Shown here piece by piece: positions 16,114-41,917 of a stretch of 55,016 nt of DNA. The notes under the pieces are model-generated. The model was given only the letters and a program-made list of their open reading frames with translations, ran no database searches and was not told where the DNA came from. A program made the position numbers and the translations under genes. Position 1 is the first letter of the stretch; each line of letters begins with the position of its first letter. Source of the stretch: an uncultured Granulosicoccaceae bacterium (GTDB taxonomy: Bacteria; Pseudomonadota; Gammaproteobacteria; Granulosicoccales; Granulosicoccaceae); the NCBI GenBank assembly GCA_938038175.1, contig CALHRQ010000107.1, positions 1 through 55,016 on the forward strand. Direction: 5' to 3'.

Positions 16114-16116
16114 TAG

Positions 16117-19150: not shown

Positions 19151-19578
19151 TGAGCTGTGCTCCAAAATTTAATTGCTGGCCTGAAAAAGGCGGCAAACCA
19201 TCCCTGGTGGTGGAACGCAGCTATGGCTGCACACATCAACAGATGCGCCTTACACCGGGAGTAAACTACCCCGAAAACGCACCGCTTATGGTTAATCCGG
19301 ATGACCCGACTACGGTCATGTTGTGGCAACCAGGCAATACGCTTATCGGGGTGCTTCAGTGCGCTGAAGAGGCACTTGACCAGAAGGTGCCGTGCCCTCG
19401 AGAAATCTGGTGCAACGCATGTCTGGATCCAGATTGCATTTGCTGGCCTGTCGACCCTGAAGGCGGCGAACTGCAGCAACAAATCAATGACGAAATCACT
19501 GCAATGATGCTACCAGGTGCCGAAAATATCGCACCGGGATTAAAGCTGAAGCGCCGTGTCCCAACAGAGGCCTGCTAA
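19150..19578 (+). CDS. head decoration protein (gpD-like), Cys-rich
   Basis: Position between protease and capsid; LIGVL; 10 Cys in 142 aa. Confidence 0.65.
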   Translation: MSCAPKFNCWPEKGGKPSLVVERSYGCTHQQMRLTPGVNYPENAPLMVNPDDPTTVMLWQPGNTLIGVLQCAEEALDQKVPCPREIWCNACLDPDCICWPVDPEGGELQQQINDEITAMMLPGAENIAPGLKLKRRVPTEAC

Positions 19579-19581
19579 ACG

Positions 19582-22115: not shown

Positions 22116-22119
22116 AAAT

Positions 22120-24165: not shown

Positions 24166-24179
24166 AGGGTCAAAATAAA

Positions 24180-24380
24180 ATGAATGTCTATTACAAGATT
24201 GGTGAAAATATCAGTGGCGTAGTTAGCGGCACTGATTCAAAGGTTAACGAAGAGGGAAAGTCTGTCCCAGTACGACCTGATTTACCTCAAGGCGCAGAAG
24301 AAATCAATTTAGATCAATACAATAAGATTCAATCTGATAGTGCTGCGGCTTTTCAGAAAGCTTCTGCTCCTAAAAAGTAA
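24180..24380 (+). CDS. small protein, possible fibre chaperone
   Basis: Follows fibre-like gene; no Cys. Confidence 0.55.
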   Translation: MNVYYKIGENISGVVSGTDSKVNEEGKSVPVRPDLPQGAEEINLDQYNKIQSDSAAAFQKASAPKK

Positions 24381-24393
24381 ACCGTAAGCCTAA

Positions 24394-25995: not shown

Positions 25996-26021
25996 TCGCG
26001 ATGATTATCATGCCCAACAAT

Positions 26022-26045
26022 AGCCCTGCGAGACAGGGCTTTTTT
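26022..26045 (+). terminator. intrinsic terminator
   Basis: AGCCCTG-CGAGA-CAGGGCT then TTTTT. Confidence 0.85.
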
Positions 26046-26062
26046 ATACTTGGAGATAAAAG

Positions 26063-28720
26063 TTGAGCGACTATCCTGTGCATAACAATCTCTACATAAA
26101 ATCATGCCCGCGTTGTAAACAGTGGACTTGCAAGTGTGAAATCAAAGATAAAAATATCGATATTGAACTTAAAAATGAAATTCAAGAGCAAGTAAAACTG
26201 TGCGTTTCCCAACTCCAATATATAAGCGCAGAAGCTGCAGAAGGCATTGCTAAGTCCGTATTCACTTTATGTTTTGATGATTCTGTAACAAAAGAAATTA
26301 TTGGCGGTTATGTTGCTAAGTGTCTATTAGAATCTGGATTGCCAACTGCTCCACAAATAACAGAACAAATAAATAATGCGATAGCTGTAATTGATATTCC
26401 TGGCACTGAAGACATAAAGGATATTCTGCTCGAGTGTCAACGAACAGAAGAAGCTATCCGTATCTTGATATTGCAAGAACTTTCAAACCAACCAAACCAA
26501 GAAGTAATAGAGATATGGTCTAAAACCATAGCTGTAAATTGCTTTCAAGAACTCATTAAAGATTACTGCACTAAAGAAGAAATAAATGCATTAATTAGTA
26601 TTGCCTTTGAGTCTTTAAATGACTATTCAGAGCATGAAATTAGAGACTTTGCCTCAGAAGAGTCAAAAAAATGCATTGAGGCTTACCCGTTTTCCGATTT
26701 AATACTTCAGGCATTGGAAAACTCTGGTTTTCAAACCATACAGCAAATCAGGGATATATCCAAAGAAGAGGCTCAGAGCTGTATATCAGCTTTAGAAATC
26801 CCTACGAAGGAGTTGGTTGAGGCTTGGTCTAAGGCAGTTGCTTTAGCATGCTATCAACAGCTTACTCAAGATCTTTACCAACCAACGCAAGAAGAGCTCG
26901 CAGAGTTCATAAAAGCAACCACTTTCGATTGCCTTAAAGATCTTATTGGCCATGACTCTGTGCCAGATGGCAATACTAGAGTTTCTGGCGTTGGACTTAC
27001 TTGTGACTCCACAGGATTAGTGAGATTTCAAGTACTACAATCCGATAATACTGTGGAACAAGTTGAAGCAAACTTCAGCAAGTTTTTTGACTCATCTCAA
27101 AATCTAATTACAAGTTTTACGGGAATATGTGATTCAAACAATATATTGCATCTCTCTTTGGGGCAAAGCGAAGGTGTTGATTTTGACTTGCCCATTAATT
27201 TAAGCAAATTAGTTTCGGAAGTTGATAGTGGGCCTGACTTATCTTTCTGCTTTGACTATGGTGGGCAGGTATTTAGACCAGACACAGATGGAAAAGTAAC
27301 ATTTACTGATCATTTGAAGTGTGAGCTTTGGACTGGAGGCTTTGAGCATGTTACTTATGATCCACAGGCTCAATGTCGAGTCATCAAATGGAAAGGTCCA
27401 ACACAAGCGGATATCCAGAATATCGCAACAGAAGTATTCCAAGATCTGAACGGCGGAAGCTCAGATCTAACCTTAAATGATGTTAAGGATTGTATTCAGT
27501 CGGTCAATAACACTTTATGCATTACCGATCTATCAGTTGGAATAAATTCTAATACTGGTGAAGTTACGGTCTCTATCAGTGATCAATGCGGAACAAAATC
27601 AGATTCATTTTTTGTTCCCATGGATCCAACCGGAAACAATGGAATTACTCAAGAAGTCGCAAAGACGATAGCGCAAAACTGTATTAATCAAACAGTTAAA
27701 GGAATTGTACTGCAATGCATTGCAGATGAAGTTTCTGTTCCTTCAGAATCAGAAATAAACCAGATAGTTCAAACATATATACAAAATAACTTAACACAGT
27801 TCTGCAATTCGTCTTTGGGATTGAATTTTGATCCTGTTACAAGACAACTGACAGTAACAGTAACTGATCAGTGTGGACCTAAGTCAGACACTGTATTCAT
27901 TCCTGGTGTAGATGTTAATTCCGGTGTAACTAAAGCAGATGTGCAGGCCTGTATTGACGATCCCAGCAATAACGCTAGATTTTGCAATTCAAATGTAGAC
28001 ATAGCACTAGTAGGAACTCAATTACAATTTTCAGTCACTGATGATTGTGGTACACAGAGTGCAAACCAAGACTTATCCAGTCTGCAGCAGTCCTATTGCA
28101 TAACAGGCACTAGTGTTCAGCAAGTTGGGCAAATAGTTACAGTAACTCAGTTACAAGAGAATTGTCCAGACCCAATTCAGTTTAGCTTTACTGCGGGAGC
28201 CGGTTCCGGTTCTGTTGAATGCTGTAACACTTCAAACACGCTACAAGCGTCATTGAATCAAGTTAATAAAACAATTGACTTCGTTTCAACTATTATGCAA
28301 TCAGTGGGTGCGCCAGTTTCAGCATCTGCTAGCATACCAATTGCAGATTTAGCTAATCTAATTTTAGATATTGAGACAGCAACAGATACAGATGGCTGTT
28401 CAAGATATCAACAGATGAAACTTTGTGGGGTCGACTTCGGTGAACGAATCCCTGTCTATGAGCCTAAGCAGAGAGTATGTAAAAAGTTCTGCCCAGATAA
28501 TCTTACTGGTGAGCTAACCATTTCAACTGAGCACGAAATAGAAGTTCAATGGGAAGAAGGACAGAGTGAAGTCATTCCTGCTGGCGGTACAAGTATTTAT
28601 AATTACAATGAACCTTATAGTGATGCAATAAGAATATGCTTCACTAATGTATGCTTGAGTGACGATGAGACGCTTTACGCATCCTTGACAATGACGCCGC
28701 AATTACCGGTCTGCTGCTAA
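26063..28720 (+). CDS. large Cys-rich fibre-like protein with internal repeats
   Basis: GGAG RBS plus TTG; WSK-x-(I/V)A-x-x-C helical repeats and three D(Q/D)CG-x-x-S repeats; ends PVCC. Confidence 0.75.
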   Translation: MSDYPVHNNLYIKSCPRCKQWTCKCEIKDKNIDIELKNEIQEQVKLCVSQLQYISAEAAEGIAKSVFTLCFDDSVTKEIIGGYVAKCLLESGLPTAPQITEQINNAIAVIDIPGTEDIKDILLECQRTEEAIRILILQELSNQPNQEVIEIWSKTIAVNCFQELIKDYCTKEEINALISIAFESLNDYSEHEIRDFASEESKKCIEAYPFSDLILQALENSGFQTIQQIRDISKEEAQSCISALEIPTKELVEAWSKAVALACYQQLTQDLYQPTQEELAEFIKATTFDCLKDLIGHDSVPDGNTRVSGVGLTCDSTGLVRFQVLQSDNTVEQVEANFSKFFDSSQNLITSFTGICDSNNILHLSLGQSEGVDFDLPINLSKLVSEVDSGPDLSFCFDYGGQVFRPDTDGKVTFTDHLKCELWTGGFEHVTYDPQAQCRVIKWKGPTQADIQNIATEVFQDLNGGSSDLTLNDVKDCIQSVNNTLCITDLSVGINSNTGEVTVSISDQCGTKSDSFFVPMDPTGNNGITQEVAKTIAQNCINQTVKGIVLQCIADEVSVPSESEINQIVQTYIQNNLTQFCNSSLGLNFDPVTRQLTVTVTDQCGPKSDTVFIPGVDVNSGVTKADVQACIDDPSNNARFCNSNVDIALVGTQLQFSVTDDCGTQSANQDLSSLQQSYCITGTSVQQVGQIVTVTQLQENCPDPIQFSFTAGAGSGSVECCNTSNTLQASLNQVNKTIDFVSTIMQSVGAPVSASASIPIADLANLILDIETATDTDGCSRYQQMKLCGVDFGERIPVYEPKQRVCKKFCPDNLTGELTISTEHEIEVQWEEGQSEVIPAGGTSIYNYNEPYSDAIRICFTNVCLSDDETLYASLTMTPQLPVCC

Positions 28721-28734
28721 ACGGAGAAATCGTC

Positions 28735-30018
28735 TTGACATTCAAATTTACAGAGAATGAAGAGCTGCCATCAGTTAAAACTCAAGGCAGTAAAGCAGAC
28801 GCGTCTGATTTTAATGAAAAGCCCAAAAAGCTATGGGATAGAGCGCAAGACTCCACGAAAACGTGCTTAGAAAAGATATACAAATTTTTGACATGCACAC
28901 CAATTTCCATGGGAGTCAAGATCGCTGACGGTCCAATGTGTGGAGTTGAGCTTTTCTATCAGCCTTCTACTAGCGACTGTGTGTATTGGGATTTAGAGGC
29001 CAAGTGCTGGAAAGTATACGAAGGTGAAGTTGAGAACTGCGTAGAAGCTGACGTTGAAGAATGTTGCTCCGACGCAAAACCAGAACGATTTTGTATATCA
29101 GCACAGAATCTATCAGGTAATGGCAACGTAGCGTCTACTTATACGGTTGTAATCGGCGATACTGAATCTGCTCTTGGTGCAGACTTCACTCCCGAAGATA
29201 TTGTGACTGCTATTGGTAACGGCGCATACCTGGATGCCGACACTAACCAGATATGCAGTATTAATCCTATCCAGTTTTCATACGAGGGTGTGGCAGCTAT
29301 AGGTGAAGCGCCTGACATTGTACTCTCACCTTTTAAGGTTGCGTATGCAGGTCTGCAATACCCTGCAGAACCAGCTGTGTGCAAGAAATTTTCACGAGTC
29401 TACACAAAGCGCGAGGATGCGATATTAGACGCTATCGTGGAAGGTAATTCTGCTGTAGTTGATGCTATTAATTGTCAGCCACAACCTACAGGATGGTATA
29501 TTTCAGAGGGGGCGCTTTGTGGCCTTCCGTTATTTTATTTACCCAAACAGAAGGCCAAGGTCTTCTACAACTGCGACACTAACACTTACGAGGAACCGCC
29601 AATGGGCATCCAAACAACACCTTATAAACCAACTACTGACAAGACTTGTGCTGAAGCCCAGTTTGCTGCTTATGAGCTAACTCCTGGCGCTACTGATGTC
29701 GGAACGATTGTCGCCGATATACTTGCAGCCAACCCGCAAGTGTTCACGGTTAACGGATCTGAAGTCCCTGTAACTGCAGAAGACATTGATTTCATTAAGA
29801 TCACGCCCAAAGCTTGTGGAACGCAAACAAGCGCCGGTGAAGAAGTCACCCTTGACTTTGTGAACATAAACGGAAGTGCTGCAGAAAACTTTGTCGATTT
29901 GTCTGACGGTGGCGTCGCAGCGACAACGCAAGTTGAAGTGCCTGCCGGTGGTTGTGCATTAGTTGATGTTTGCTTCAAGAAGTGCTGGAGCAAAGAAGAA
30001 CTTGCTGAGCTGGGCTAA
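28735..30018 (+). CDS. Cys-rich acidic putative virion protein
   Basis: GGAG RBS plus TTG; internal repeat GPMCGVELFYQP / GALCGLPLFYLP. Confidence 0.75.
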   Translation: MTFKFTENEELPSVKTQGSKADASDFNEKPKKLWDRAQDSTKTCLEKIYKFLTCTPISMGVKIADGPMCGVELFYQPSTSDCVYWDLEAKCWKVYEGEVENCVEADVEECCSDAKPERFCISAQNLSGNGNVASTYTVVIGDTESALGADFTPEDIVTAIGNGAYLDADTNQICSINPIQFSYEGVAAIGEAPDIVLSPFKVAYAGLQYPAEPAVCKKFSRVYTKREDAILDAIVEGNSAVVDAINCQPQPTGWYISEGALCGLPLFYLPKQKAKVFYNCDTNTYEEPPMGIQTTPYKPTTDKTCAEAQFAAYELTPGATDVGTIVADILAANPQVFTVNGSEVPVTAEDIDFIKITPKACGTQTSAGEEVTLDFVNINGSAAENFVDLSDGGVAATTQVEVPAGGCALVDVCFKKCWSKEELAELG

Positions 30019-30064
30019 GTAATTACATTACTACAACCTGATCGATATTAAATAGGAATAAAGC

Positions 30065-32548
30065 ATGGGCACTGAGACAACGCCATACAATCCAGCAGTT
30101 GCCCAAAAGCTGGGCGCAGAATGTGAAAAACTGCGCCTGGTTTACTGGCTTTACAACAATGATGATAATGGTTGTGGCCCACTTCAAGGCATGCCAATCA
30201 CTCGCTTTGGTGATTGGACGCTGGATGAGTTTTACTGTGATGGAAAAAATATCCTCGCTAATCCAGTACCAATATCATATTCAAATTTCAACGATAACTT
30301 CAACGAATGGGCAGGCGCACTTAATCCTGTAAGTGCAAATAATTGGGACTGGGTAAATGCAGGAAGACCATGCTTTAGAGTTATGGCAACTATCACCTGT
30401 GACGATACTGTCTACGGCGACTTTCTACTAACACCTGTTAATGTCAACCCTCGATTTGATGGTATTCAGGTTCTCATTCAGCCTGATGTCATTATTGGGC
30501 CGGAAGTTGAAGTTCTTGTTTGTCGTAAGATAAATAAATCTGGACAAACAGAAAAGACATTTTTCGATAAAGCTGGCGACGCAATCGAAAGCCTTACATC
30601 GTATTATGCTCAGGCTGCTTCGCATATTGTGGTATCTGATACTGGCTCATTCCCTTTCACAGAATCGAATATTGCCAAGTTCTACAGTGAAGAAGATCTT
30701 TGTAATTGCTTAAAAGTTTGCAGTGATGAGTACGATGAAATAGATGACACGCCGCCGTGTATTGTAGAGTTTCAGGAAGGGGGTTGTATCTATGCCAAAA
30801 ATGAGGATGGAGAATTTATTCTTCCAGATGGCTCTACTTCTGAGACACCGGCTGCTTTTGCAGAAAATGTAAGTCAAAGTGTACTTTTCGATGATCAGGG
30901 CAGTATTAAAGCTCGAACAGTCGTTGAAGGGCAGTTCCAAGAAAATGAGGACGATAATGTAGAGCTCTATTCAAGCTATGAGCCGGAAGCGTCAACACTT
31001 CCTGATGGATGGTATTACGATCAGACCTGTACAGGTGTAGAACCCGCTCCTCCAGAGCCACCAGCTTGTCCAGAAGGTACTAAACTCGATATAGGCTTCC
31101 TTTGTAAGCATGGTGCTTTTGCAGATAACAGCCGCTGGGTAGGAGCTCCTCTGGTCAATATGCCCAATGGCCCTATCCATACCATTGAAGCGCTCTGTGA
31201 TAATGGCAGCACTCTTCAGGCGACTGGAACCAGCTGGTGGGCTATACGGGATGTTTTCAACGCTGCAGGATATGAAACTAATGTAGCTTGCGCGAATTGG
31301 GCAGGTTGCCCACCTTCAGGCTGGCCAGCCTGGATGCCAGATCCGGATATAGAAACCTTGTTTGCACGTGGCTGGTTTGGGGTCGGTTGTAAAAAGAAAA
31401 TCACTAAGCTCACTATCGTCGAACATGAAGATCCAGCTTGGGTTGGCGTTTATAAAGACATTGTTAACGTAGATGCTCCTCCAGAAACCATCTTCTGGGC
31501 AAATATTTGTGGTTCAGTTTATGCAGAAAATTGCAATGGTGAACCTATTTTTGTAGAAAAATGCTGCATAAAAAATCAGGTGCAGCAATCGGGGTTACTT
31601 GATGATTTTAAGATAACAAAAGCCGCGACGACTACAACGGTCACTTACACCAATAGTGATGAAGCCACAGAGATGACTGTTTCTGTTGGAAGTGAAGGGG
31701 ATATTAAAATATCGTCCGGGCAGGGTGATGATAGTGACCAAGCAATAACATCCTACATTGAAGCCTGCCTATCGGCTGGCAATGATGTCAATTTCAGTGC
31801 TACAGGCGTCGATGGAAGCACAGCGACCGCGACACTCTTACACTCCGCAGAGACAAACCCTTTTCCTGGCTTCTACAATGACTCAACAGACGCTATAGCG
31901 ACTGGTGAGCAGGTGTTTAAAGTCACTTCGATGACTGCCAGCTGCGAAGATGGTGCTTTGCTTTGTGCACTATTGACACAAGGGTGCAATGACGATCGCC
32001 GTGATGATTGTCTTGAAGAGATTAAGTCATTACTCCAATGCCCTGGCGAGAATTGCCCAGCCATCAATCAGAGCTCGATTTCATTGGTTGATGATGGCTC
32101 CTCTGTTTCTTATCCATTAACGGCAGAGAACGAATTCAAAGACCACAATATCGTTGTTACTTTGACTGATCCTAGTGGTTGTTTAGCCTCTAATCCTGAT
32201 GCTGAGATTAGCGTTCGATACTTGGTTGATCATGAAGCTGGGCCTTATGATGCCCATCGACTTTATATTCTCATTGCGAGCGCAGGCACTTTTACAGCGC
32301 AATCTGCTAGTAACTCTGGCGGTACAGTCGGTGCGGGTAATATTCAGATAGGCTACAACGCGGGTGACGGTGTTGCCCAGGTTAGAAATGATCGATGGGT
32401 CAAACTTACTGCAACGGCAGCTGAATGGCTCAATGGAATCACTTTCACGACCGGTTTTTTTGGTGGTGTGGGCGGTGCGTATGAGACTATTCATTCCTTA
32501 GAATTTGAGATTTGCGAAGGTCTGACGGAGATATGCGATGGCTGTTAA
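30065..32548 (+). CDS. large Cys-rich acidic multidomain putative virion protein
   Basis: AGGA RBS; 827 aa; ends ICDGC. Confidence 0.75.
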   Translation: MGTETTPYNPAVAQKLGAECEKLRLVYWLYNNDDNGCGPLQGMPITRFGDWTLDEFYCDGKNILANPVPISYSNFNDNFNEWAGALNPVSANNWDWVNAGRPCFRVMATITCDDTVYGDFLLTPVNVNPRFDGIQVLIQPDVIIGPEVEVLVCRKINKSGQTEKTFFDKAGDAIESLTSYYAQAASHIVVSDTGSFPFTESNIAKFYSEEDLCNCLKVCSDEYDEIDDTPPCIVEFQEGGCIYAKNEDGEFILPDGSTSETPAAFAENVSQSVLFDDQGSIKARTVVEGQFQENEDDNVELYSSYEPEASTLPDGWYYDQTCTGVEPAPPEPPACPEGTKLDIGFLCKHGAFADNSRWVGAPLVNMPNGPIHTIEALCDNGSTLQATGTSWWAIRDVFNAAGYETNVACANWAGCPPSGWPAWMPDPDIETLFARGWFGVGCKKKITKLTIVEHEDPAWVGVYKDIVNVDAPPETIFWANICGSVYAENCNGEPIFVEKCCIKNQVQQSGLLDDFKITKAATTTTVTYTNSDEATEMTVSVGSEGDIKISSGQGDDSDQAITSYIEACLSAGNDVNFSATGVDGSTATATLLHSAETNPFPGFYNDSTDAIATGEQVFKVTSMTASCEDGALLCALLTQGCNDDRRDDCLEEIKSLLQCPGENCPAINQSSISLVDDGSSVSYPLTAENEFKDHNIVVTLTDPSGCLASNPDAEISVRYLVDHEAGPYDAHRLYILIASAGTFTAQSASNSGGTVGAGNIQIGYNAGDGVAQVRNDRWVKLTATAAEWLNGITFTTGFFGGVGGAYETIHSLEFEICEGLTEICDGC

Positions 32549-32696
32549 AACAACTGAAGAAGAACGTCAGGCGATTGTAGGTGAAGAAATAAGTCAGGCT
32601 GAATTTGATAAGCGAATTGCTCAAATAGAAAAATCAGCTGAGAGCGCCCGGTTTTGGTTCATGGCCTCGCGAAAACAGGCCACAGCAGAAAAATGA
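32538..32696 (+). CDS. 52-aa small protein (not in ORF track)
   Basis: GGAG RBS; MAVKTTEEERQAIVG...; stop overlaps ATG 32693. Confidence 0.65.
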   Translation: MAVKTTEEERQAIVGEEISQAEFDKRIAQIEKSAESARFWFMASRKQATAEK

Positions 32697-33820
32697 GTAT
32701 CGCAAAGGCCATAAAGTTCTTCTGTAATGGCGAGGATGTAAAGCAACAGCAAAAGATTGATCAGCTGTGCGCTTTAGTCAACGCGCAACAGGAAAAACTT
32801 AATTCTATAACCAAGACGGTATGGAAGTTCACTTACCCAGAGCCAGGGGTCAACTTCGCAGTGTGGTCAGGAGAGCAAGATGCTCCACATGGGCCTATCG
32901 TAGATATCTTCAACCAGCCTGGTGGCCCTTTTGGTGTTGGTGATCATATCAACGGTTCACCGACGCATGTTGGCGTTACTCCAGACTTCAACTTGAACGA
33001 TATCGAGCTTATTGGAAACCCAGAAGCGCAAGCCAAACAGCAGTGGGCAGTATGGGGATATAAAGAAATACCAGAAGATGGTTTTATCAGGGATAACAAT
33101 GCAAATACGGGTGAAACAGCAGAGCTCTATTGCGGTATCTCTGATGGTTGCTGTAATTCTCAAATGGAGCTGCTATCGGAGCAGGTGACCAACACCAGTG
33201 CCGCTGATCGTACTGTTCTTGACCCAACGCCGGTCAAAGCCGGTATATACCCGGCTGTCCTGCTGATGTCAGACTTGTCTTTCTATGGTGGCTTGGATCT
33301 CGAGTTCTCTACTGATGGAGAGTCGTGGTCAAATTTAACTGGAGGCTACCCCAGTGCGCCCATGTGGGTAGCACGTCAAGAACCGTGTGATTACGTATTA
33401 GAGGAAGGTGAATCACTGAATGGTCCTTCACCATGTTGCCCATCTGCGAACTATTTCCCGGTTGTCGGAGAAGAAGGAGGACCGGCAGAGTTTGAACCAC
33501 TCTATCCGGAAGCAGGTAGAAAATTAGCGAATGACAATTTCCAGGATGGCAACGGAAATGCACCATTTAATTTCCAAGTTCGAAATCAAACAAATACAAA
33601 TGTTAACTGGCAGGCCTGTACACCGCCTGTGCCATACGCAACTATTCCAGCATTGAACACGCAAGGAGCTAACTACACGGTAGTGAATAACGGCGATGGG
33701 ACATATTTACACTGCTTTGATGGAACATTAGGGCCGTTTGCAAGCATAATCATTACTGGCGCTGTTCCCAATCCGCCAGGTGTGGGTGGAACGATCTCAA
33801 TGTATTGTGAAACTGCATAG
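32693..33820 (+). CDS. putative carbohydrate-binding virion protein (PA14-like plus CBM-like domains)
   Basis: WAVWGYKEIPEDG...VKAGIYPAVLLMSD...GGLDLEFS resembles PA14; C-terminal beta domain. Confidence 0.5.
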   Translation: MSIAKAIKFFCNGEDVKQQQKIDQLCALVNAQQEKLNSITKTVWKFTYPEPGVNFAVWSGEQDAPHGPIVDIFNQPGGPFGVGDHINGSPTHVGVTPDFNLNDIELIGNPEAQAKQQWAVWGYKEIPEDGFIRDNNANTGETAELYCGISDGCCNSQMELLSEQVTNTSAADRTVLDPTPVKAGIYPAVLLMSDLSFYGGLDLEFSTDGESWSNLTGGYPSAPMWVARQEPCDYVLEEGESLNGPSPCCPSANYFPVVGEEGGPAEFEPLYPEAGRKLANDNFQDGNGNAPFNFQVRNQTNTNVNWQACTPPVPYATIPALNTQGANYTVVNNGDGTYLHCFDGTLGPFASIIITGAVPNPPGVGGTISMYCETA

Positions 33821-33893
33821 TATTTATCCATAAAACGCTGACAGTCTGTAGAGGCAGCAAAATATGATAAAAGCCGGAAACCATAGAATCACC

Positions 33894-34169: not shown

Positions 34170-34516
34170 ATTTCCAACATGATCCGGATGAGTTTAAACG
34201 TTTCAAGAAAATTGTAGAGGCCGCTGTAGGTGCAGGCATGCACGCGCATGAGGTTGGACCGCATTTATTTGTCGGAACGGGTGCTCATCAGTTTCTAAAT
34301 GCTTTAACTGGCTATGATCATCCGTATCAAAGCGCAGCGGCTGTGGGCGCGCAAATACACAATTACATCAAAAACCCCAGAATGCTTGAGCAGTTTAAAA
34401 CCAATGTTGCTGAGGCCAGCAAACGGTCAACTCAGGTAAGACGCGCGGCCTCGGTGCCGGTTCAGCGTAGTGCTTCAGGTACCGCCAATGACTTATTGAA
34501 AAGATCAAAGCAATGA
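34166..34516 (+). CDS. His-rich hypothetical protein
   Basis: ATGA coupling on both sides. Confidence 0.7.
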   Translation: MNFQHDPDEFKRFKKIVEAAVGAGMHAHEVGPHLFVGTGAHQFLNALTGYDHPYQSAAAVGAQIHNYIKNPRMLEQFKTNVAEASKRSTQVRRAASVPVQRSASGTANDLLKRSKQ

Positions 34517-35307
34517 TGCCATCTAGCGCGCGCTGCAAGGGCTATAACGGTCTTTTGGCCATCCCTATGGAAGCGCCACCAAATACTAAGAATGAGCTCC
34601 ACAGCCCAACTAAAGGCGTCCAGAATGGAGTGCCAGAGCCGATATATCCTGGTGATCCCGGATTTCCCGCAGTCATAGAAGAGGTTAAGCAGGTCAGAGC
34701 TATGGTCGAGCTGGGAATCTGGCCGACTGAAACGCTCAAGCAGGGCAATCCATCAGGCCTGAGTGGCGAAGTGCCATTTCTTCTGCGCAATACCTCTATC
34801 TATAACGATGGTGCCGGCGATCCTAAAGCGGCAGCGACATATGTCGCTATGGATAATCCGCCTGACCTTGGATTGCTTGTGTTTCGAGAACTGGTTCGTT
34901 TGGGCGTGCCGTTTAAGAAAAAGTACAATCACTTTCCTTTTCATGAAGAGATCACAGGTTTTCAGGAAAGGCTCATCGTTCGAATCCGTAAAGCCCATGC
35001 GCTGGGATGGCAAGTCAAATGCTATTACGGTCTAGAGCGGCCTGAAACGGTTCTGGAACTGCCCGGATGCGTTTTCTGCTGCAATGATGAGGGTGCGCCT
35101 AACCATTTCAGTTTTGTTGCAAACCATGCCACTGGCTACGGAGCAACTTACCAAGAAATTCTTGATACTTTCAATTTTCAAGGTCTTTTGGATCGTCAGA
35201 TGCAAGTACTTGATGTGTTATGGCAAGGGGCGATGTATAGAATGCTGCTTGGCGTTCACTACAGACAAGACAATGAAGAAGGTTTCAAACTGGGCCAAAC
35301 GGTCTAA
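34513..35307 (+). CDS. vanadium-dependent haloperoxidase / PAP2 superfamily protein
   Basis: KCYYGLERP (Kx6RP), PNHFSFVANH (variant of PxHPSYPSGH), RMLLGVHYRQD (Rx5Hx3D). Confidence 0.8.
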   Translation: MMPSSARCKGYNGLLAIPMEAPPNTKNELHSPTKGVQNGVPEPIYPGDPGFPAVIEEVKQVRAMVELGIWPTETLKQGNPSGLSGEVPFLLRNTSIYNDGAGDPKAAATYVAMDNPPDLGLLVFRELVRLGVPFKKKYNHFPFHEEITGFQERLIVRIRKAHALGWQVKCYYGLERPETVLELPGCVFCCNDEGAPNHFSFVANHATGYGATYQEILDTFNFQGLLDRQMQVLDVLWQGAMYRMLLGVHYRQDNEEGFKLGQTV

Positions 35308-35343
35308 CCAGGCTGGCCTGAACTTCAGCCCTAGTTGATTTCC

Positions 35344-35742
35344 ATGAGTGGGTCATACTACCTGAAGGGCGGGCCACATTTAATACAGCCGGATCCGCCA
35401 ACGGCCACGATCCGGCCACGACTGCCATGCTCGATAGATGAGTTTGACGAATGCGATCGCGAGTTTGCAGAACAGGAGGGTGACTGGGCCACGATATCCT
35501 ACAAGCGGATCCGGGTCTGCGGGTTCTTACGAGACAATAACGTAACTAAGGCCGCCTACTCTGGAGGTGCTTCGGTTCCAGCTCAGAGCTTGCGCTTCTT
35601 TTTCAAGCTATCTGATATTCCAAATATTCGTTGTGATATGCCATTCTGGCTAAAAGATTGCCGCTATCTGGTAGGGTCTGATCCCCTGCCCTGGAACGGG
35701 TGGCATTATGTAACGTTGAAAGACTGTGGAGAGTGCGCCTAA
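35344..35742 (+). CDS. putative head-tail connector/closure protein, Cys-rich
   Basis: Size and position at start of tail operon. Confidence 0.55.
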   Translation: MSGSYYLKGGPHLIQPDPPTATIRPRLPCSIDEFDECDREFAEQEGDWATISYKRIRVCGFLRDNNVTKAAYSGGASVPAQSLRFFFKLSDIPNIRCDMPFWLKDCRYLVGSDPLPWNGWHYVTLKDCGECA

Positions 35743-36248
35743 TGAGCGGATTGCTAAAATTTTCATACCGCGTCGGCAATGCTGACCATGAAACAAAGTT
35801 ACAAGAAGCGGAGATCCAAAGACAACTGGCAGAGAAAGAATCGCTAATGTACCGGCGTGCATTCCTTTCAGAGAAACAAAAAAACAAGCCTCCGACGCCG
35901 CTCCCATACAATGAATACTGCGAAAAGATGGCAGAGCTCAAACGCGTTGTCAAAGCGTTTGAAAAACAAGAGTGTGACGTCAGTTCTCAGATTGTCGGCA
36001 ATGCCTTCTGCAAAGACTTCGGTGGCTATGAAGAGTATGAGATGGCAAAAAAAATCATCCGTCTCAAACGTATCGTCTCCGAGTACAACCTATTACAATG
36101 CGAGCTTATCCAGAAGGGTTGTGATGTCAGTAGTGCGCCTGCTCAGATAAACGCGTGCTGCGATGCATTAATGCAAGCAGCAGAAGGAAAAGACGTGTCA
36201 ATGGATACGTATGTCGTTCTGAATCAATGCTATCCAGTTCAGTGCTAA
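35742..36248 (+). CDS. helical Cys-rich putative neck protein
   Basis: TAATG coupling; ends YPVQC. Confidence 0.6.
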   Translation: MSGLLKFSYRVGNADHETKLQEAEIQRQLAEKESLMYRRAFLSEKQKNKPPTPLPYNEYCEKMAELKRVVKAFEKQECDVSSQIVGNAFCKDFGGYEEYEMAKKIIRLKRIVSEYNLLQCELIQKGCDVSSAPAQINACCDALMQAAEGKDVSMDTYVVLNQCYPVQC

Positions 36249-36767
36249 ATGGCATTTGATTATCCCGTTCATGCACTGAGCTGTATTTTAGATGGACTAA
36301 AATCTTGCTTTGATGAATATGACGGCAATCAGCTATCAGTAAAATGCAATTTTAATGGTTGCTGGAAACTCAAAGAAATAACGCACCGTTGCGGTCTTAA
36401 TATCCTTATCACAAATGCAAGGCGTGATAACAATTGTCCGAGAACAATGGATGGTTGCATAGAAACTGTCACACCGATGATCATTGACATCGTATTTGAA
36501 ATTTATGCCGATAGCTGTTTAGATGATGCATCGGACAAAGCATTGAGCGGTCTTGCACTGGTTGATTATACTTTCTGTAATTGTGCCGGTGCACTACCTG
36601 TTCTTGATATAGAGCGAAGCACATACAAAATGGATCTTGCTCAAGACCGAAACGAATACACACGAACGTACCGACGTGCAAGTCAAACTTGGCAAGCCAA
36701 GACGCTGATCAGCGCCTGTGCACCGGGTGCAACACCAATAGGATGCGAAAAAAATCATGTTCTCTAA
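36249..36767 (+). CDS. putative tail terminator/completion protein, Cys-rich
   Basis: Directly before major tail gene; 12 Cys in 172 aa. Confidence 0.55.
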   Translation: MAFDYPVHALSCILDGLKSCFDEYDGNQLSVKCNFNGCWKLKEITHRCGLNILITNARRDNNCPRTMDGCIETVTPMIIDIVFEIYADSCLDDASDKALSGLALVDYTFCNCAGALPVLDIERSTYKMDLAQDRNEYTRTYRRASQTWQAKTLISACAPGATPIGCEKNHVL

Positions 36768-37404
36768 TCCATATCTATCAACAGAATGCCACAAATTTAA
36801 CGACTGTAAACTCCGTGGGTGCGGTACTAAGTTTGCTGTCGCGCCATTGAAGGCAATCGGTGCGACGCCTGATGCCACTGCGGATCTTTTGAATATCGAG
36901 TGGTGGCACTTTCGTCAGGTTCGTGAGCTTCAGAACCTCAACTGGACAGATTCCTCTTCTCCTACTGAATACGTCAATATTGGCGATTGCCGAAATCAGA
37001 TCAAATTCGAAGAGCCACGAAAGCGCTCTCTTTCAGCCACACTGAACTGGTGTAAAGACGATATCGCGCACTGCAGAATGTGTCGACCGGAAAATTGCGT
37101 GGCCTATTGCTATGTGGAGTGCGGTGAAGGACTGACATGGGATTTAAACGGAAATAACCCGGATCCAACTATCCCAGACAGCCCAATATTTGCTGATCCT
37201 ATCGGTGCAGGTTTTCCTACGAGCATTGGCATAATGGTGATCAATAGCTGCGGCAAGGATATCGAAGGCTCAAAATGCATCACTCGTTCGATCAACGCGA
37301 CTATACTAGAGGAGCACGAGTTCAACATGTGCGCAGAGCTAGAGGCATATGATGAATTGTATATTCCACCAAACGCAGGACTATTATTACCTGCAACAGC
37401 ATAA
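36757..37404 (+). CDS. putative major tail (tube) protein, Cys-rich
   Basis: LRGCGTKFAV N-terminus; directly upstream of frameshifted chaperone and tape measure; 13 Cys in 215 aa. Confidence 0.7.
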   Translation: MFSNPYLSTECHKFNDCKLRGCGTKFAVAPLKAIGATPDATADLLNIEWWHFRQVRELQNLNWTDSSSPTEYVNIGDCRNQIKFEEPRKRSLSATLNWCKDDIAHCRMCRPENCVAYCYVECGEGLTWDLNGNNPDPTIPDSPIFADPIGAGFPTSIGIMVINSCGKDIEGSKCITRSINATILEEHEFNMCAELEAYDELYIPPNAGLLLPATA

Positions 37405-37421
37405 AACAATGGAACACACTC

Positions 37422-37874
37422 ATGATTCAAGAAAAGCCTGTTTCCAACCAATCGGATATTGTTAACGAAGAACACGAGCGTTCAATAAAGTTGATGCAAA
37501 TCACTCACGAGCTTAGCAATAAGCAAATGGGGGTTAATTTCAGTAAGGATGAAATCGATCTTTATGGCCATCCCATATTCGGTCCGATCTACTGGCACCA
37601 CGTTGGTGGATGGGTACAAGATGAATACACGCCATTCGTAAAGGCCAAGCAAGATACCAGGGCGGCTATTGCAATACTATTCCATCGGGCTGAAAATGCG
37701 GATGGAAGCAGGCGTTTTAAATCCCAAGAGGATTATGAATTCCTACAGAACTTCCCACACACTGCCATCATATTCAAACTATCTTTGGCCATACTGCAAA
37801 CCGATAAAAACCCCAGCGGAGATAGCTACGTTGTATTGGAAGATGAGGTCACTGAGCAACTAAAAAACTCCTAA
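37422..37874 (+). CDS. tail assembly chaperone (gpG-like)
   Basis: Position; ends at slippery CTA AAA AAC. Confidence 0.8.
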   Translation: MIQEKPVSNQSDIVNEEHERSIKLMQITHELSNKQMGVNFSKDEIDLYGHPIFGPIYWHHVGGWVQDEYTPFVKAKQDTRAAIAILFHRAENADGSRRFKSQEDYEFLQNFPHTAIIFKLSLAILQTDKNPSGDSYVVLEDEVTEQLKNS

Positions 37875-38038
37875 ACTTCCCAGAGCTGTACGAAATGTAT
37901 CAGATCGGGAAGATGTACAACATGCTGCCATGGGAGGTGATGAAACTTAACCGATCCCAGTTGGCATTTTTGTATGCGTGCCATCGCAAAGAAAAGGAAG
38001 AAAAACCGATGGCCAAAATGAATCTATCGAATAAATGA
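37862..38038 (+). CDS. gpT-like -1 frameshift extension of tail chaperone
   Basis: A AAA AAC at 37862-37868; -1 frame reads LLNFPELYEMYQIGKMYNMLPWEVMKL... to TGA 38036-38038, which overlaps the tape measure ATG. Confidence 0.85.
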   Translation, partial: KKLLNFPELYEMYQIGKMYNMLPWEVMKLNRSQLAFLYACHRKEKEEKPMAKMNLSNK

Positions 38039-39888
38039 CGATTGAAGAACGTTATCGGTTCATCCTTGAATCTGAGGAGACCGGCGAAGGATTTGATCAA
38101 GCCGAAGAGAAGATATCTGATCTATTCGATGAAGTGCGCGAGGCCGCGCAGGTTTTTAATAACTTAGAAGACAATGGCGCAGACGCCTTTTCAGCGATCG
38201 CAGCTGAAGCTGAAAAGGCAGACACCAGCGCATCCTCGTTCTTTTCTAAACTTTCCCGAAGTTCGATTGTTTCATTTGGGACATCAGCCCTAAATGTCTT
38301 TGACCGCGCTGCGGGCGCGATTGATTTTGTCTCTGATACTTTCGATACACTTCAGGGTCAAATAACAACCACTCAAGGTGCACTCAGCGCTTTAGATCGT
38401 GGCTTTTCTACTCTTGACATTGCTCAGATAGAACAAGCGAACGCCAACTTTTTAGAACTTTCCTCCGTATCTCAGAACACACTTTCTAATATTCAACAAC
38501 AGATAGCCGTGGGTGTCGCACCTTCATTAGGTGCACTTGCTAGTGTTATCTCTCTCAATGCCACTTCTTTTGATGGGCTAAGTGAGCGGGTTGATATATT
38601 TGCTCGAGGGGCTACGTTACGAATAGCCGAGGTTAGCGATGGACTGCGTTTGCTTTTTGCTGATGAGGGTGAAGAGCTTTTACAAGCAAATTTTAAACTT
38701 GCACTTGCAGACTTTAGAAACTTTGCTAATGAGCTGATAGGCCGAGGTGACAAAGTAGATGAGGATCGCGAATCTTATCTTGCTCTTGTAGACGCCTTAG
38801 AAAAAGCAGGGGAAGAGTTCGGTAGTTCGAGTCAAGCTGTTGAGGAAGCGTTAAAGGCACAGGATGCGGCAGCAGAAGAAAACCGAAAAAAGTTTGAAGA
38901 TCTTCAAGACGAAATCGAATCTACCACTGGAAAGCTTGGTGGCCTGACGATTGGTAGTAACGCAGCCGCTGCGGCTTTGGATAAGCTTTTTGACCGAGAA
39001 TCTAACCGAATATCCGGATTGGAAATCGAAGGTCTTGGTGATCTAGATCTTTCAGGCGCTCAACTGGCGTCAAGAGGCCTTGATGACTTGGAGGCATCGG
39101 AGCTGTCACGCATTCTCGGCCTTGATTTATCGCAGAGTAAAAAACAGGAACTGCAGCAACAGCTTAAAGAACAGATCGGGACGCTTGGGCTTCAACTCGA
39201 GCTTCAGGCACAGCTTGCGATCGATGAAGCCAACTCACGGTCAGAGATACAGGATTTAGCTGCTCAATACAATGCGCAGATCGGGCGTGATGATGCTGTT
39301 CAGATACCGATCGCACTTGAAGTCATCGATAAAGAAAAAGCGGCAGCGGACTTACAGCAGACAACTGCTAACCTGGGTTTCTTAACGTCTGGCCTGAATT
39401 CAACTGCCGCAGCATTTGGAAACTTTGCCGATGCAGCAAGCTCTGAGGGCGAGTCGGCTTTTAAGGATTTCCAGCGCATCCAGGTGGCATTTTCAACCGC
39501 TGCTGCTATATCGGCTGCGGTGCAATCAGCCGGTTTTGCGGCTGGTGCTGGTCCTGCAGCTGCGTTTGCCGCTTATGCGAGCGTCGCAGGGGCGCTGTTA
39601 GGCGCTGTCGCGCAAATCCAGGCCATTAATACCAGTGGCGGGGGTTCAGCCCCAGCGAGGCTATCTGGAGGCGGTGCAACGCCATCAGGGCCGATAGGGG
39701 GTGAGCAGGCAGGTAATCGTTTCGGTGATAACGATGGAGAGGGTGATTCTGGTGGCACCCAGTTCAATTTCACTTTTATCGGTAAGGACTCGGATACGGT
39801 GACACTGGGTACGTTGCGCAATATGGCTCGAGCACTCAAGAATGATGAGGCCAGTCGCCGAGCGTTCCAGAACATATTGAATAGCTAA
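38035..39888 (+). CDS. tape measure protein
   Basis: 617-aa helical Ala/Glu/Leu-rich protein with hydrophobic C-terminal segment, downstream of G/GT; zero Cys. Confidence 0.85.
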   Translation: MTIEERYRFILESEETGEGFDQAEEKISDLFDEVREAAQVFNNLEDNGADAFSAIAAEAEKADTSASSFFSKLSRSSIVSFGTSALNVFDRAAGAIDFVSDTFDTLQGQITTTQGALSALDRGFSTLDIAQIEQANANFLELSSVSQNTLSNIQQQIAVGVAPSLGALASVISLNATSFDGLSERVDIFARGATLRIAEVSDGLRLLFADEGEELLQANFKLALADFRNFANELIGRGDKVDEDRESYLALVDALEKAGEEFGSSSQAVEEALKAQDAAAEENRKKFEDLQDEIESTTGKLGGLTIGSNAAAAALDKLFDRESNRISGLEIEGLGDLDLSGAQLASRGLDDLEASELSRILGLDLSQSKKQELQQQLKEQIGTLGLQLELQAQLAIDEANSRSEIQDLAAQYNAQIGRDDAVQIPIALEVIDKEKAAADLQQTTANLGFLTSGLNSTAAAFGNFADAASSEGESAFKDFQRIQVAFSTAAAISAAVQSAGFAAGAGPAAAFAAYASVAGALLGAVAQIQAINTSGGGSAPARLSGGGATPSGPIGGEQAGNRFGDNDGEGDSGGTQFNFTFIGKDSDTVTLGTLRNMARALKNDEASRRAFQNILNS

Positions 39889-39889
39889 A

Positions 39890-40108
39890 ATGCGTGTTAA
39901 ACATCCCGCTCAGTTACCATGTTCAGGTGAATTGATGTGTATTCCGGTTGAGGATTGCCCAGATGATTGGGTATTGAGCATGACAGTATTGGAAAATCCA
40001 TCAGTCGCAGAAGAGCCTATTCTTCGCGAGCGTGAAAACGGTTACGTGATCGTCGAGTTTCCGGAAAAAGGTGACTTCCAGTTAAAGTTTGATTGCTGCC
40101 CACCATGA
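39890..40108 (+). CDS. small PKD/Ig-like tail protein
   Basis: VEFPEKGDFQLKFDCC, similar to the next two genes. Confidence 0.55.
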   Translation: MRVKHPAQLPCSGELMCIPVEDCPDDWVLSMTVLENPSVAEEPILRERENGYVIVEFPEKGDFQLKFDCCPP

Positions 40109-40350
40109 TAGCCACCAAACCAACCATCAATGGACCAGAGCTTGAGCTCTGTGCAGCACTTCCATATTTACTCCAAAGCCCTCCAGAATGCGCAGACGCA
40201 AAAACACTGCAGTGGCTTACAGCTGCGCCGTTGCTGCCGCCTGGAGTGACAGCAGATGATATTTATTTCTGGACGCCAAATTCCCTGACCACGTGGGTGC
40301 AAGTGCCAAAGGATGGCATTTATTATTTTTATGTGCAGTGCTGTAGATAA
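40105..40350 (+). CDS. small PKD/Ig-like tail protein
   Basis: VQVPKDGIYYFYVQCC. Confidence 0.55.
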   Translation: MIATKPTINGPELELCAALPYLLQSPPECADAKTLQWLTAAPLLPPGVTADDIYFWTPNSLTTWVQVPKDGIYYFYVQCCR

Positions 40351-41066
40351 TGCCAGCAACGATAACCACAACAGAGCCAAACCCGAATTGTCTGGTAGGG
40401 CTAACGCCTAAACAAATATCTGGCGAGCAGTGTCCGGGTGCCAGTCGCACACTGTGGGATTTTGTAGAACTACCAGTTGGATCTGCAGCAACCTACGCTG
40501 ATCCTTTGGCAGCAGATACGACATGGTTACCTGATATACCAGGCCAGTATCGTGTCCGATTTTGCTGCTTTTATGACTATGATACGGTCCCCGCAGTCGA
40601 CTATGAAGCTCCACCGACTGATCCATTTCTGGGTTGCCCTTTGGGTGTCGAGGCAGGTGAAGAGATTTATATTCCATTGCTAAATTGCGAGGACGCTGCG
40701 GTTGTTTGGTCTGCGACTGGTGCATTTGTTTCCATTGCCGGGGATACCTCGGGTGCCACGGTAACGACTGATGCCAATAATCCTGGACCGATATCAGTCA
40801 CTGCAGAGTGCACCACCACTGATTCGAACAACCAAAGCGTTACCACGCCTGTCACATGTGATTTTGAATCACACGCTGGCCCTTTAATGTGTGACGTCAG
40901 TCCTTTCTTAAGGGTCAGCGCTAATCTTTGCGGTGGGTATTGTGAATGTGTTGAACGAACGTTTATCGTAAAACTCGTTGGCGATGATGATGAATGCGAA
41001 TCTGATGTCCTGTGTATTTCAGTTAAGGACTGTCCGCCGACTTTTGATGAGGAGTGTGCAGCGTAA
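40350..41066 (+). CDS. PKD/Ig-like Cys-rich tail protein
   Basis: WDFVELPVGSAATYADP...WLPDIPGQYRVRFCC; 16 Cys in 238 aa. Confidence 0.65.
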   Translation: MPATITTTEPNPNCLVGLTPKQISGEQCPGASRTLWDFVELPVGSAATYADPLAADTTWLPDIPGQYRVRFCCFYDYDTVPAVDYEAPPTDPFLGCPLGVEAGEEIYIPLLNCEDAAVVWSATGAFVSIAGDTSGATVTTDANNPGPISVTAECTTTDSNNQSVTTPVTCDFESHAGPLMCDVSPFLRVSANLCGGYCECVERTFIVKLVGDDDECESDVLCISVKDCPPTFDEECAA

Positions 41067-41917
41067 TGTGGCCAGTTCCTGATCTAGAATTTATAAAAAA
41101 CTGCGAGTGTAAATCGCATAACTCTGTTTTGTTGTGGAATAACGTCTGCACTTGTGGGTGGAATATGACCGCAACGAATACTGCTCAGGGTTCAAGTATA
41201 TATAATGCATGCTCCTGTGCAGGTGGCCAGTCATTTGTTTTCAATGGATCGACAACCATTACTGCTACAGGACCAAGCCCTCTATTGATCGACCAGATAT
41301 TTATCTGGGGTCACAATATCGAAGATGCCATCATAACAGTCACTCCAAACGGTACTTTCGGAGGGCCGAGACAAGTTGGCGTTACTCAGTGTGGCCCTTG
41401 TGATCCGGGTGGTCTAACTCCTATTGTTTTGGATTTGGTCATCCCTCCAGAAAATGCTGTGACAGATACAGTTACTATTGACATTCAATCTTCTGGACTT
41501 CTTTGTATTCAAAATTTATTTATAGGACAGAAGCTGCCGGTCACCATGGCTCGGAGTTGGCAAAATCCACATGATGGAACAGATACAACACAAGATATAA
41601 AGGAATCTGAATGTGGCCCTCTTACCATCGTTACAGAGCGCATTGAAATACCAATGAATCTGCAGATGCGGTGCGTTCCCTGTGAGTGGGTGGACGAGTA
41701 CTGGCGCTGCTACCTGAAGTGGGCTCAAAAATACGGCGTCTATTTCAGATGGTCAATAAACAATGCAGAGAACGATCTCTTTTGCGGAAGACTGGATGGT
41801 CCACAGCCGCCGTCAACATTCGCTGACTATAAAATGTGCACTAAAAATCTGACTCTCAATGCGCTGGGTTACATAAGCCAGCCAGAATCAAAGTTCCTTA
41901 CTCCGGTCGATGGCTGA
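41066..41917 (+). CDS. putative distal tail protein, Cys-rich
   Basis: IFIWGHNI, IQNLFIGQKL; position after tape measure. Confidence 0.6.
   Translation: MWPVPDLEFIKNCECKSHNSVLLWNNVCTCGWNMTATNTAQGSSIYNACSCAGGQSFVFNGSTTITATGPSPLLIDQIFIWGHNIEDAIITVTPNGTFGGPRQVGVTQCGPCDPGGLTPIVLDLVIPPENAVTDTVTIDIQSSGLLCIQNLFIGQKLPVTMARSWQNPHDGTDTTQDIKESECGPLTIVTERIEIPMNLQMRCVPCEWVDEYWRCYLKWAQKYGVYFRWSINNAENDLFCGRLDGPQPPSTFADYKMCTKNLTLNALGYISQPESKFLTPVDG

Follow-up and report, generated by a model that had tools for sequence, protein, structure and literature searches.

A half-length vanadium bromoperoxidase-like protein encoded among the structural genes of an uncultured tailed phage

The 55,016-nucleotide contig CALHRQ010000107.1, which is assigned to an uncultured Granulosicoccaceae bacterium (assembly GCA_938038175.1) and is called the window below, is the DNA of a tailed phage. 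Among its structural genes lies a gene for a protein of 264 residues, P0001, which a first-pass annotation of the sequence had described as a compact enzyme of the vanadium haloperoxidase (VHPO) type. We suggest that P0001 is a minimal homodimeric vanadium bromoperoxidase (VBPO), likely made late in infection and acting outside the cell after lysis. We give this reading a probability of about 0.5.

The annotation had read three vanadate- or phosphate-binding motifs and an N-terminal segment, PGDPGFPAVIEEVKQVR, in the 264-residue open reading frame (ORF), and all four are found there (Table 1). The start codon of the gene is joined in an ATGA (34513-34516) to the stop codon of an upstream ORF of 116 residues, which overlaps a preceding ORF of 101 residues in the same way. 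The latter has one membrane-like stretch and a coiled coil, with only weak matches to spanin- or holin-like proteins, and the Pfam and PHROGs scans assigned no function to the former. The gene is embedded in the morphogenesis operon, as had been claimed, in that it lies between the head genes and the neck and tail genes on the + strand, but it sits there as an insertion: in three cultured Chi-like phages (chosen among the top portal matches, 24-26% identity) the neck genes directly follow the capsid gene, whereas in this phage a 13-kb block of cysteine-rich genes of no family and the PAP2 gene are inserted between the two. It is an accessory gene and not a core morphogenesis gene, and its neighbours differ between phages. 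Around it, neither promoter-like sites (3 against 5.9 expected from shuffles) nor terminator-like signals (3 against 4.3) rose above background, and the idea that it has a promoter and terminator of its own, as a moron would, was dropped. The sole public sequencing run that contains this DNA is labelled marine metagenome. It spans 32000-38500 in one contig with a single difference in the gene, a C>A change at 34617 in the silent third position of Gly35; since the window may itself derive from this run, the two are not independent.

Table 1. Features of the window, by position in the 55,016-nucleotide stretch
Feature	Position	Strand	Remark
Lambda/Chi-type head module	12997..20964	+	terminase gpA, portal, S49 protease, major capsid protein E (3.3% cysteine)
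Large, mostly cysteine-rich ORFs without family, between head and neck genes	21480..33820	+	
Two coupled ORFs upstream of P0001	33864..34516	+	101 aa and 116 aa
Compact VBPO-like gene (P0001)	34513..35307	+	264 aa; ATGA start overlaps upstream stop
N-terminal segment PGDPGFPAVIEEVKQVR	34648..34698	+	
Asp114, invariant	34852..34854	+	aligned with Corallina Asp335 and Acaryochloris Asp363
Loop 139-145, including Phe143	34927..34947	+	aligned with Acaryochloris loop 390-404 / Phe401
His162 and Trp166 (K-3 position)	34996..35010	+	Trp166 aligned with Acaryochloris Arg425 and Corallina Arg397
Motif 1, Lys169-x6-Arg176-Pro177, KCYYGLERP	35017..35043	+	
Motif 2, PNHFSFVANH	35098..35127	+	second His198; Ala203-Asn204-His205 replaces Ser-Gly-His
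Motif 3, RMLLGVHYRQD	35239..35271	+	Arg243, His249 (predicted vanadate/phosphate-binding), Asp253
Neck/tail region (by position)	35335..45493	+	weak tape-measure match at 38035, tail protein match at 41910

Five homologues of P0001 (38-57% identity) seeded a profile that matched, among 1.84 billion representatives, 564 clusters at E<=1e-3, 194 at E<=1e-10 and 80 at E<=1e-30. The best 150 matches of this search were listed. The alignment A2 holds 144 sequences, 10 of 154 having been omitted: four were long forms, one carried an insert and five were fragments or had aberrant ends. The members have a median length of 272 amino acids (range 240-340, n=144). Taken alone, P0001 matches the Pfam family PAP2 (PF01569) at 17.8 bits and E=0.003, below the cut-off of 27.2 bits, and its best phmmer match in the PDB has E=3.1. 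Judged on sequence, the PAP2 match is not a chance one, since P0001 has the five homologues, 99 of the 144 members hit PAP2 at E<=0.01 and the family profile matches VBPO structures at E of about 1e-11. Asp114, Lys169, Arg176, His198, His205, Arg243 and His249 are found in all 144 sequences, and in 151-154 of the 154 when the omitted rows are included. The absence of a signal peptide and of membrane helices, noted earlier, was confirmed: the best 19-residue hydropathy window of P0001 reaches only 0.91, which falls short of the several transmembrane helices of membrane PAP2 lipid phosphatases (PgpB, LpxE, G6PC); 3 of the 144 members reach 1.8 once, and in none of the 144 is the N-terminus hydrophobic when judged by a crude hydropathy window. 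PHROGs and NCBIfam hold no family model for P0001, and a search for longer, fused close relatives found none among 1256 candidates, which is weak evidence. A 'hypothetical' cluster of the ESM Atlas (113 members, score 0.91; PAP2 43%, VCPO_2nd 25%, viruses 50%) is a lead only.

The annotation had taken the Ala-Asn-His of motif 2 as a sign of shifted or lost activity. For the alanine this probably does not hold. It is the family norm at the Ser position (Ala in 119 of the 144, Gln in 13, Ser in 4), and motif 2 of the Acaryochloris enzyme (AmVHPO), an active VBPO (PMC11871015; papers cited here and below by PMC number, except PMC13519999, are cited for the passages of them that were available), is itself AGH. 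The effect of the Ser-to-Ala change was judged from the AmVHPO sequence alone; no data on S402A and no papers on Corallina Arg397/Asp335 were found in the open literature, and the available passages of PMC10536487 were uninformative on S402A. Only the asparagine is unusual: the position is Gly in 138 of the 144 members and Asn in just two, P0001 and its homologue P0002, and Asn there is absent from every characterised enzyme aligned here. The position tolerates side chains in other lineages too, since a deep-branching subgroup of 330-345 residues (L009, L010, L011) has PAMH as motif 2. P0001 and P0002, which are 57% identical, also share His162 (in none of the 142 others), His144 (6), Trp166 (4), Phe199 (6) and Tyr209 (2). 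We read these private residues as a remodelled pocket and not as decay, because they persist across 57% identity and the terminal branch lengths are ordinary (0.44-0.46 against tree medians of 0.57-0.62). The halide or substrate preference of this subclade may thus differ from that of the rest of the family.

A structure model of P0001 built from the 144 sequences, with a predicted local distance difference test score (pLDDT) of 97.5 and a predicted template modelling score (pTM) of 0.93, was compared by VIA-align with 48,161 chains. The top 18 matches all belong to the PAP2/VHPO superfamily (Z 6.6-22.4; next unrelated chain 4.6), which agrees with the helical bundle that the annotation had named as a check. 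Closest are the Corallina VBPO (8VGX; Z 22.4 over 261 of the 264 residues, root-mean-square deviation 3.4) and the Ascophyllum enzyme (1QI9; Z 22.2, 259 aligned, deviation 3.4); next come the Zobellia vanadium iodoperoxidase (VIPO, 15.3), the Curvularia vanadium chloroperoxidase (VCPO, 14.8), NapH3 (14.7) and PhoN (14.4, 174 aligned). Foldseek also placed five VBPOs on top, with E from 4.7e-6 to 6.8e-5, ahead of the best acid phosphatase at 8.4e-5, and VIA-align had already favoured VBPOs with an early model from six sequences (pLDDT 75.7; 17.5 against 12.6). In a search of the PDB with the A2 profile, the Corallina and Acaryochloris VBPOs and the Zobellia VIPO had E-values between 8e-12 and 1e-10; those of class A acid phosphatases began at 1e-9, and NapH1 and NapH3 stood at 0.39 and 1.2. 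The VBPO alignments start at profile position 99 and, among the alignments shown, they alone span the A-x-x-V-x-x-D and Phe143 segments. Together with the dimer and tree described below, these results bear out the earlier view of a soluble protein of the PAP2/VHPO fold that is nearer to the algal and cyanobacterial bromoperoxidases than to membrane PAP2 proteins or class A acid phosphatases. It is also compact, as had been said, with 264 residues against 556-639 in solved VBPOs and about 19% identity to them. In the model it is a stripped VBPO core and not a truncation.

The correspondences with the Corallina enzyme and AmVHPO in Table 1, to which Corallina Phe373 (for Phe143) and AmVHPO His513 (for His198) are to be added, were obtained by counting in HMMER alignments; the R425S and R425D entries set the offset of the AmVHPO chain numbering at 27. 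P0001 thus has in common with the VBPOs (Corallina 8VGX, 1UP8 and 1QHB; Ascophyllum 1QI9; AmVHPO 5LPC and 8Q20-22) the K-R, H, R-H site, a second His and the equivalents of these Asp and Phe residues; the Phe143 position is F in 136 of the 144 members, and an aromatic residue is kept at K-3. The second His, seven residues before the catalytic one, is the invariant His198. The annotation had taken the His of PxH as typical of bromo- and iodoperoxidases. It does mark the bromoperoxidases, but not the bacterial iodoperoxidase, in which Phe takes its place (PMC9144378) as it does in the VCPO; the acid phosphatase 7F17, the one such structure inspected, has PSGH and no second His. The GVH-x-x-x-D pattern had been named as well and turned out not to discriminate, as it occurs also in 7F17 and in LpxE. 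Trp166 was considered as a sign of a chloroperoxidase and rejected, because Trp or Phe made the Corallina enzyme chlorinate more and had no such effect on AmVHPO (PMC11871015). The Curvularia enzyme has Trp at K-3, as P0001 does; like the Zobellia VIPO (4CIT/4USZ) and the Streptomyces NapH1/NapH3, this VCPO (1IDQ) has the same catalytic bundle, and about 200 residues align (Z 14.7-15.3).

Two copies of P0001 gave a dimer score of 0.70, against 0.01 for the best of three controls. Of 30 solved homodimers 20 attain the mark, as does 1 of 23 monomers. The runs agreed in at least 97% of contacts, with a partner pLDDT of at least 94. In the predicted dimer, loop 139-145 contacts residues 166, 197, 162 and 22-32 of the partner, and His162 and Trp166 would face the partner's His144, which brings these three private residues together at the interface. 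In AmVHPO the adjacent subunit supplies loop 390-404 with Phe401 and so completes the pocket (PMC11871015), and the P0001 dimer is predicted to rebuild this cross-subunit pocket of the VBPOs. The dimer score may stem from likeness to solved VBPO dimers and is evidence of that likeness, not of binding.

Trees were made from 107 rows with FastTree (two tandem-domain rows dropped) and from 45 rows with IQ-TREE in quick mode, both rooted at the midpoint. The compact family is monophyletic (support 89 in FastTree and 94 in IQ-TREE) and is sister (93, 96) to a clade of long VBPO-like proteins of 440-720 residues (100, 99), not nested inside it. The long clade includes proteins of the AmVHPO type (L222 against 5LPC, E 9e-77). 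In the IQ-TREE tree, viruses account for the deepest branches, and the copies from Saprospiraceae are nested within phage ones. The compact family is a viral sister family of the VBPOs.

A scan of IMG/VR gave 32 loci, of which 11 are compact (L002-L012) and 21 are long or distant relatives; two further DNA-pattern scans (6 and 16 loci) returned no new compact carrier, only known repeats, a distant PAP2 group of 227-274 residues and chance matches. The 11 carriers range from 32 to 63% in GC and have lambda-type, podovirus-type and other heads, and five of the eight records checked are rated 100% complete. In nine of the 11 the gene lies in a structural or lysis region, for example before the holins (L003), after the presumed capsid gene (L004), before the head-tail connector (L012), or after collagen or tail-fibre genes (L008, L011). 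In GTDB, 54 of 64 parts were scanned with one pattern, a close form of which is matched by 36 of the 144 members; five compact loci were found among 80 of 495 confirmed loci, two that look phage-derived (L036, L038) and three that look cellular (L034, L035, L037; Saprospiraceae, Chitinophagales). Metagenome contigs added six compact loci among 80, two of them named marine metagenome and two phage-like (L114, L119). The family is large and mostly phage-borne. A search of 50,697 records of cultured phages came back empty both for P0001 (E<=1) and for P0033, a central member of the family (E<=0.1), and none of the 60 relatives of the bin of the window has a compact member, several congeners having long VBPO-like genes. 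Close phage relatives without the gene at the same site were sought with tail-tube and terminase patterns in IMG/VR and with the capsid protein in cultured phages, and none was found; one relative of the capsid protein, P0162, came without genomic context.

By analogy, P0001 likely works like a VBPO. The protein would be made late in infection and released at lysis, where it would turn bromide or iodide and hydrogen peroxide into hypohalous acid. His249 would bind vanadate, with Lys169, Arg176, His205 and Arg243 holding it, and His198, Asp114, Trp166 and Phe143 of the partner subunit would line the halide or substrate channel; peroxide activation and halide oxidation would proceed as in the VHPOs (PMC11871015). 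Because P0001 has no signal peptide, the vanadate and bromide of seawater would be met only on lysis, or if the protein is borne on the particle. Phosphate in the cytoplasm would compete with vanadate. The target of the oxidant is the least certain step. Our leading guess, owing to the cysteine association described below, is the cysteines of the outer virion, the oxidation of which would make the disulfide stitching of released particles faster; quorum-sensing signals or the biofilm matrix around the burst would come next. Hypobromous acid from Laminaria inactivates acyl-homoserine lactones, which raise anti-phage defences (PMC11794697), and oxidative cross-linking driven by VBPOs has a precedent in algal walls (PMC8307928).

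Several points weigh against a bromoperoxidase. Asn204 stands in the place of a Gly that binds vanadate through its backbone (Gly403 in PMC9144378), and it could impair binding. The margins over acid phosphatases in Foldseek and in the profile search are just one to two orders of magnitude, and with the early six-sequence model Foldseek put PhoC/PhoN first, with nothing under 1e-3. The trees were made without a class A acid phosphatase or a characterised enzyme, the intended outgroups being PAP2-type proteins of other genomes, and many proteins of the sister clade come from soil Acidobacteria, Paenibacillus and anaerobic Clostridium, where bromide and peroxide chemistry is not obvious. The gene lies among replication genes in two of the 11 carriers (L002, L005). 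Phosphatases and VHPOs also share the same first-shell site (PMC9144378). P0001 could accordingly be read as a soluble phosphatase or phosphotransferase on a VBPO-type scaffold, vanadium-free and active in the infected cell on nucleotides, sugar phosphates, a defence signal or a phosphoprotein. We regard this as rather unlikely, although its K-R, H, R-H site is identical to that of the class A acid phosphatases (PhoN 2A96, PhoC 9QCJ, E. blattae 1D2T and P. aeruginosa 7F17), which are soluble proteins of the same superfamily with the three motifs, a similar size, similar Foldseek E-values and Z of 12-14; the two carriers just mentioned, the anaerobic long relatives and the cytoplasmic location implied by the lack of an export signal would also fit. 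Class A acid phosphatases are exported by an N-terminal signal peptide, and the compact family is without the hydrophobic N-terminus expected of them. The superposition on a VBPO covers 261 of the 264 residues, against 174 on PhoN (169-180 across these enzymes). The second His, Asp114, Phe143 and the aromatic residue at K-3 are kept and map to VBPO pocket residues, and the phosphate-binding Ser of the aligned phosphatases (PSG) has become Ala in most of the family, in the proportions given above.

Another possibility, which we consider doubtful, is that P0001 is a vanadium enzyme that releases no free hypohalite and acts on one bound organic substrate, either as a site-selective halogenase of the kind of the alkyl-quinolone VHPOs or as a non-halogenating enzyme like NapH3, with the private residues shaping the pocket. 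Selective bacterial VHPOs are known that brominate quorum signals yet are negative in the monochlorodimedone test (PMC11312541), NapH3 is a neighbour in fold, and of the residues common to P0001 and P0002 (Asn204, His162, His144, Trp166, Phe199) three lie in the predicted cross-subunit interface; yet the nearest folds and profile matches are the algal and cyanobacterial VBPOs and not NapH1/NapH3, and no biosynthetic neighbour gene was found in any locus scanned. Very improbable, to our mind, is a catalytically dead or incidental P0001 that serves as a virion-decorating or cargo protein or is a decaying moron. The Gly-to-Asn change in the oxyanion motif, the location within a structural operon and the varying neighbours could be taken that way, but all seven invariant residues are kept, the substitutions are common to P0002 and the terminal branches are ordinary. 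The G+C content at third codon positions of P0001 (0.47) is similar to that of core phage genes, and its cysteine content of 1.9% is unlike that of outer virion proteins.

For the bromoperoxidase, the virion itself is a candidate substrate. In the virion module (15517-45493), 350 of 9137 residues are cysteine (3.8%) and 18 of 24 ORFs have at least 3%. The share is 1.3% for 19 other ORFs of this phage, and it lies at 0.3-0.6% in the three cultured Chi-like phages, which have the same head type. Outer tail-region proteins reach 5-7%, and the tape measure and chaperone have no cysteine. Phage Milano has a disulfide-stitched virion with 2.4% cysteine in its structural proteins, and the available passages name no oxidase (PMC10491603); by analogy, the particle of this phage is probably disulfide-stitched as well. 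In five of five carriers the capsid protein has 2.6-4.3% cysteine (that of L004 identified by position only), against 0-1.0% in seven controls that are not habitat-matched, and the six other carrier genomes examined have 4-13 cysteine-rich ORFs each. Against a role of the enzyme in stitching stand a complete phage without the gene (G080) that is equally cysteine-rich (1.9%, five cysteine-rich ORFs), a weak capsid-like ORF in L036 with just 0.8% cysteine, and the lack of habitat matching in the controls. The enzyme is probably not required for disulfide-stitched virions, since the Milano virion is stitched and the records of cultured phages gave no match to the family. A locus-wide comparison (median 1.9% cysteine in 16 carrier loci against about 1.0% in 19 others, p=0.0014) was set aside as confounded, because structural genes are over-represented in the carrier loci and giant viruses are among the controls. 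Capsids of same-genus prophages were sought as a habitat-matched control, and the one found in 47 genomes (locus 1.2% cysteine, three ORFs) is too few. We therefore treat the association of cysteine with the gene as a lead and not as a result. The full picture, in which marine phages of unrelated capsid lineages carry a half-size VBPO that, once released at lysis, makes hypobromous acid from the vanadate, bromide and peroxide of seawater and thereby stitches a cysteine-rich virion in a halogen-based extracellular maturation, is in our opinion a long shot; if true, viruses would supply the sea with reactive halogen by a route that has gone unrecognised.

No description of a phage-encoded VHPO or of the compact family was found in the open full-text literature, a search that left subscription papers mostly outside and did not cover supplements. 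The main text of a 2026 paper on halogenase mining contains neither 'phage' nor 'virus' (PMC13519999), a viral-shunt paper describes halometabolites whose enzymatic origin is unknown (PMC12891027), the sole phage link in the available passages of PMC11312541 is VHPO genes near phage integrases, and those of PMC10427571 have little bearing. The closest precedent is VirX1 of cyanophage Syn10, described as the first viral halogenase to be characterised (PMC8407142); it is a halogenating enzyme of a marine phage, but a flavin-dependent iodinase of 531 residues that uses FAD and has an unrelated fold. Giant viruses (Hokovirus, Sylvanvirus, Yasminevirus and Klosneuvirus in BFVD) have structural matches at E 1.7e-6 to 1.6e-3, and the viral proteins of 440-590 residues in IMG/VR, labelled PAP2 or uncharacterised, belong to the long clade and not to the compact family. 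New here are the ANH subclade, the residue-level mapping, the dimer prediction and the cysteine association. If the compact family is active as a haloperoxidase, for which the odds are about even, it would be the first phage-encoded vanadium enzyme to be found in the literature searched. It would provide a natural minimal scaffold, less than half the length of solved VBPOs, for the question of halide specificity with identical first-shell residues, which is stated to be unresolved (PMC11871015). Viruses would then join marine halogen cycling, and phages would hold a chemical tool against quorum sensing, biofilm or the thiols of their own virions. Should it be a phosphatase, a VBPO-type scaffold would be doing phosphate chemistry and would show where one activity ends and the other begins.

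The contig is binned in G000, which is 64% complete and has a proteobacterial-like RecA (its top PDB matches we take to be gamma- or betaproteobacterial). Its genus comprises 48 genomes of 3-7.8 Mb, a profile that might suit a genus of seaweed surfaces such as Granulosicoccus. In tetranucleotide distance the phage ranks at about the 90th-99th percentile of the bin contigs or higher, which supports the binning only weakly, and for this reason G000 is not treated as the proven host. The window has no tRNA, no terminal repeat and no nucleotide match to other contigs of its bin; no RNA dataset with this DNA is listed, and no part of it occurs in the runs X2 and X3. Among congeners of the bin, L217 (G035:C5) and L218 (G005:C3) encode proteins of 464-483 residues with two tandem PAP2/VHPO-like domains, and L222 (G023:C97) and L232-L234 are long bromoperoxidase homologues of the AmVHPO type, the L222 copy being split by a frameshift. 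Full-length VBPO-like genes (440-590 residues) occur in giant-virus and other viral contigs (L013-L033), and a separate soluble PAP2-like gene of 227 residues with PSGH and no second His recurs in syntenic viral contigs (L200, L201, L203, L205, L206, L211, L213).

Proteases are found near some members of the family. Fusions with M10, M12A or M43 domains occur in three of the best 150 matches (P0041, P0110, P0114), and an S8, astacin or M43 gene is adjacent in three of the 11 phages (L005:8779-9951, L009:8790-9608, L010:11001-11906). P0114 has a lipoprotein-like signal and a membrane helix ahead of its PAP2 domain. A protease partnership was rejected as a function in this phage, as the window has no such protease. 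Of the block between the head and neck genes, about 12 kb (22048-33820) consists of six ORFs of 388-885 residues without a Pfam or PHROG family, two of which have distant matches in L038 and L119. At the end of the tail operon (45495-46430) lies a gene of glycoside hydrolase family 16 (GH16; PF00722, E=1.4e-11) with the E-x-D-x-x-E motif, possibly a hydrolase of algal beta-glucan. GH16 laminarinases are reported from kelp-associated phages, in a paper whose available passages never mention haloperoxidase, vanadium or PAP2 (PMC11126160). The window further encodes a serine recombinase or invertase (54005-54643), a methyltransferase (101-592) and a ParB-methyltransferase (11692-12993), the last of which has close relatives in the carriers L004 and L005.

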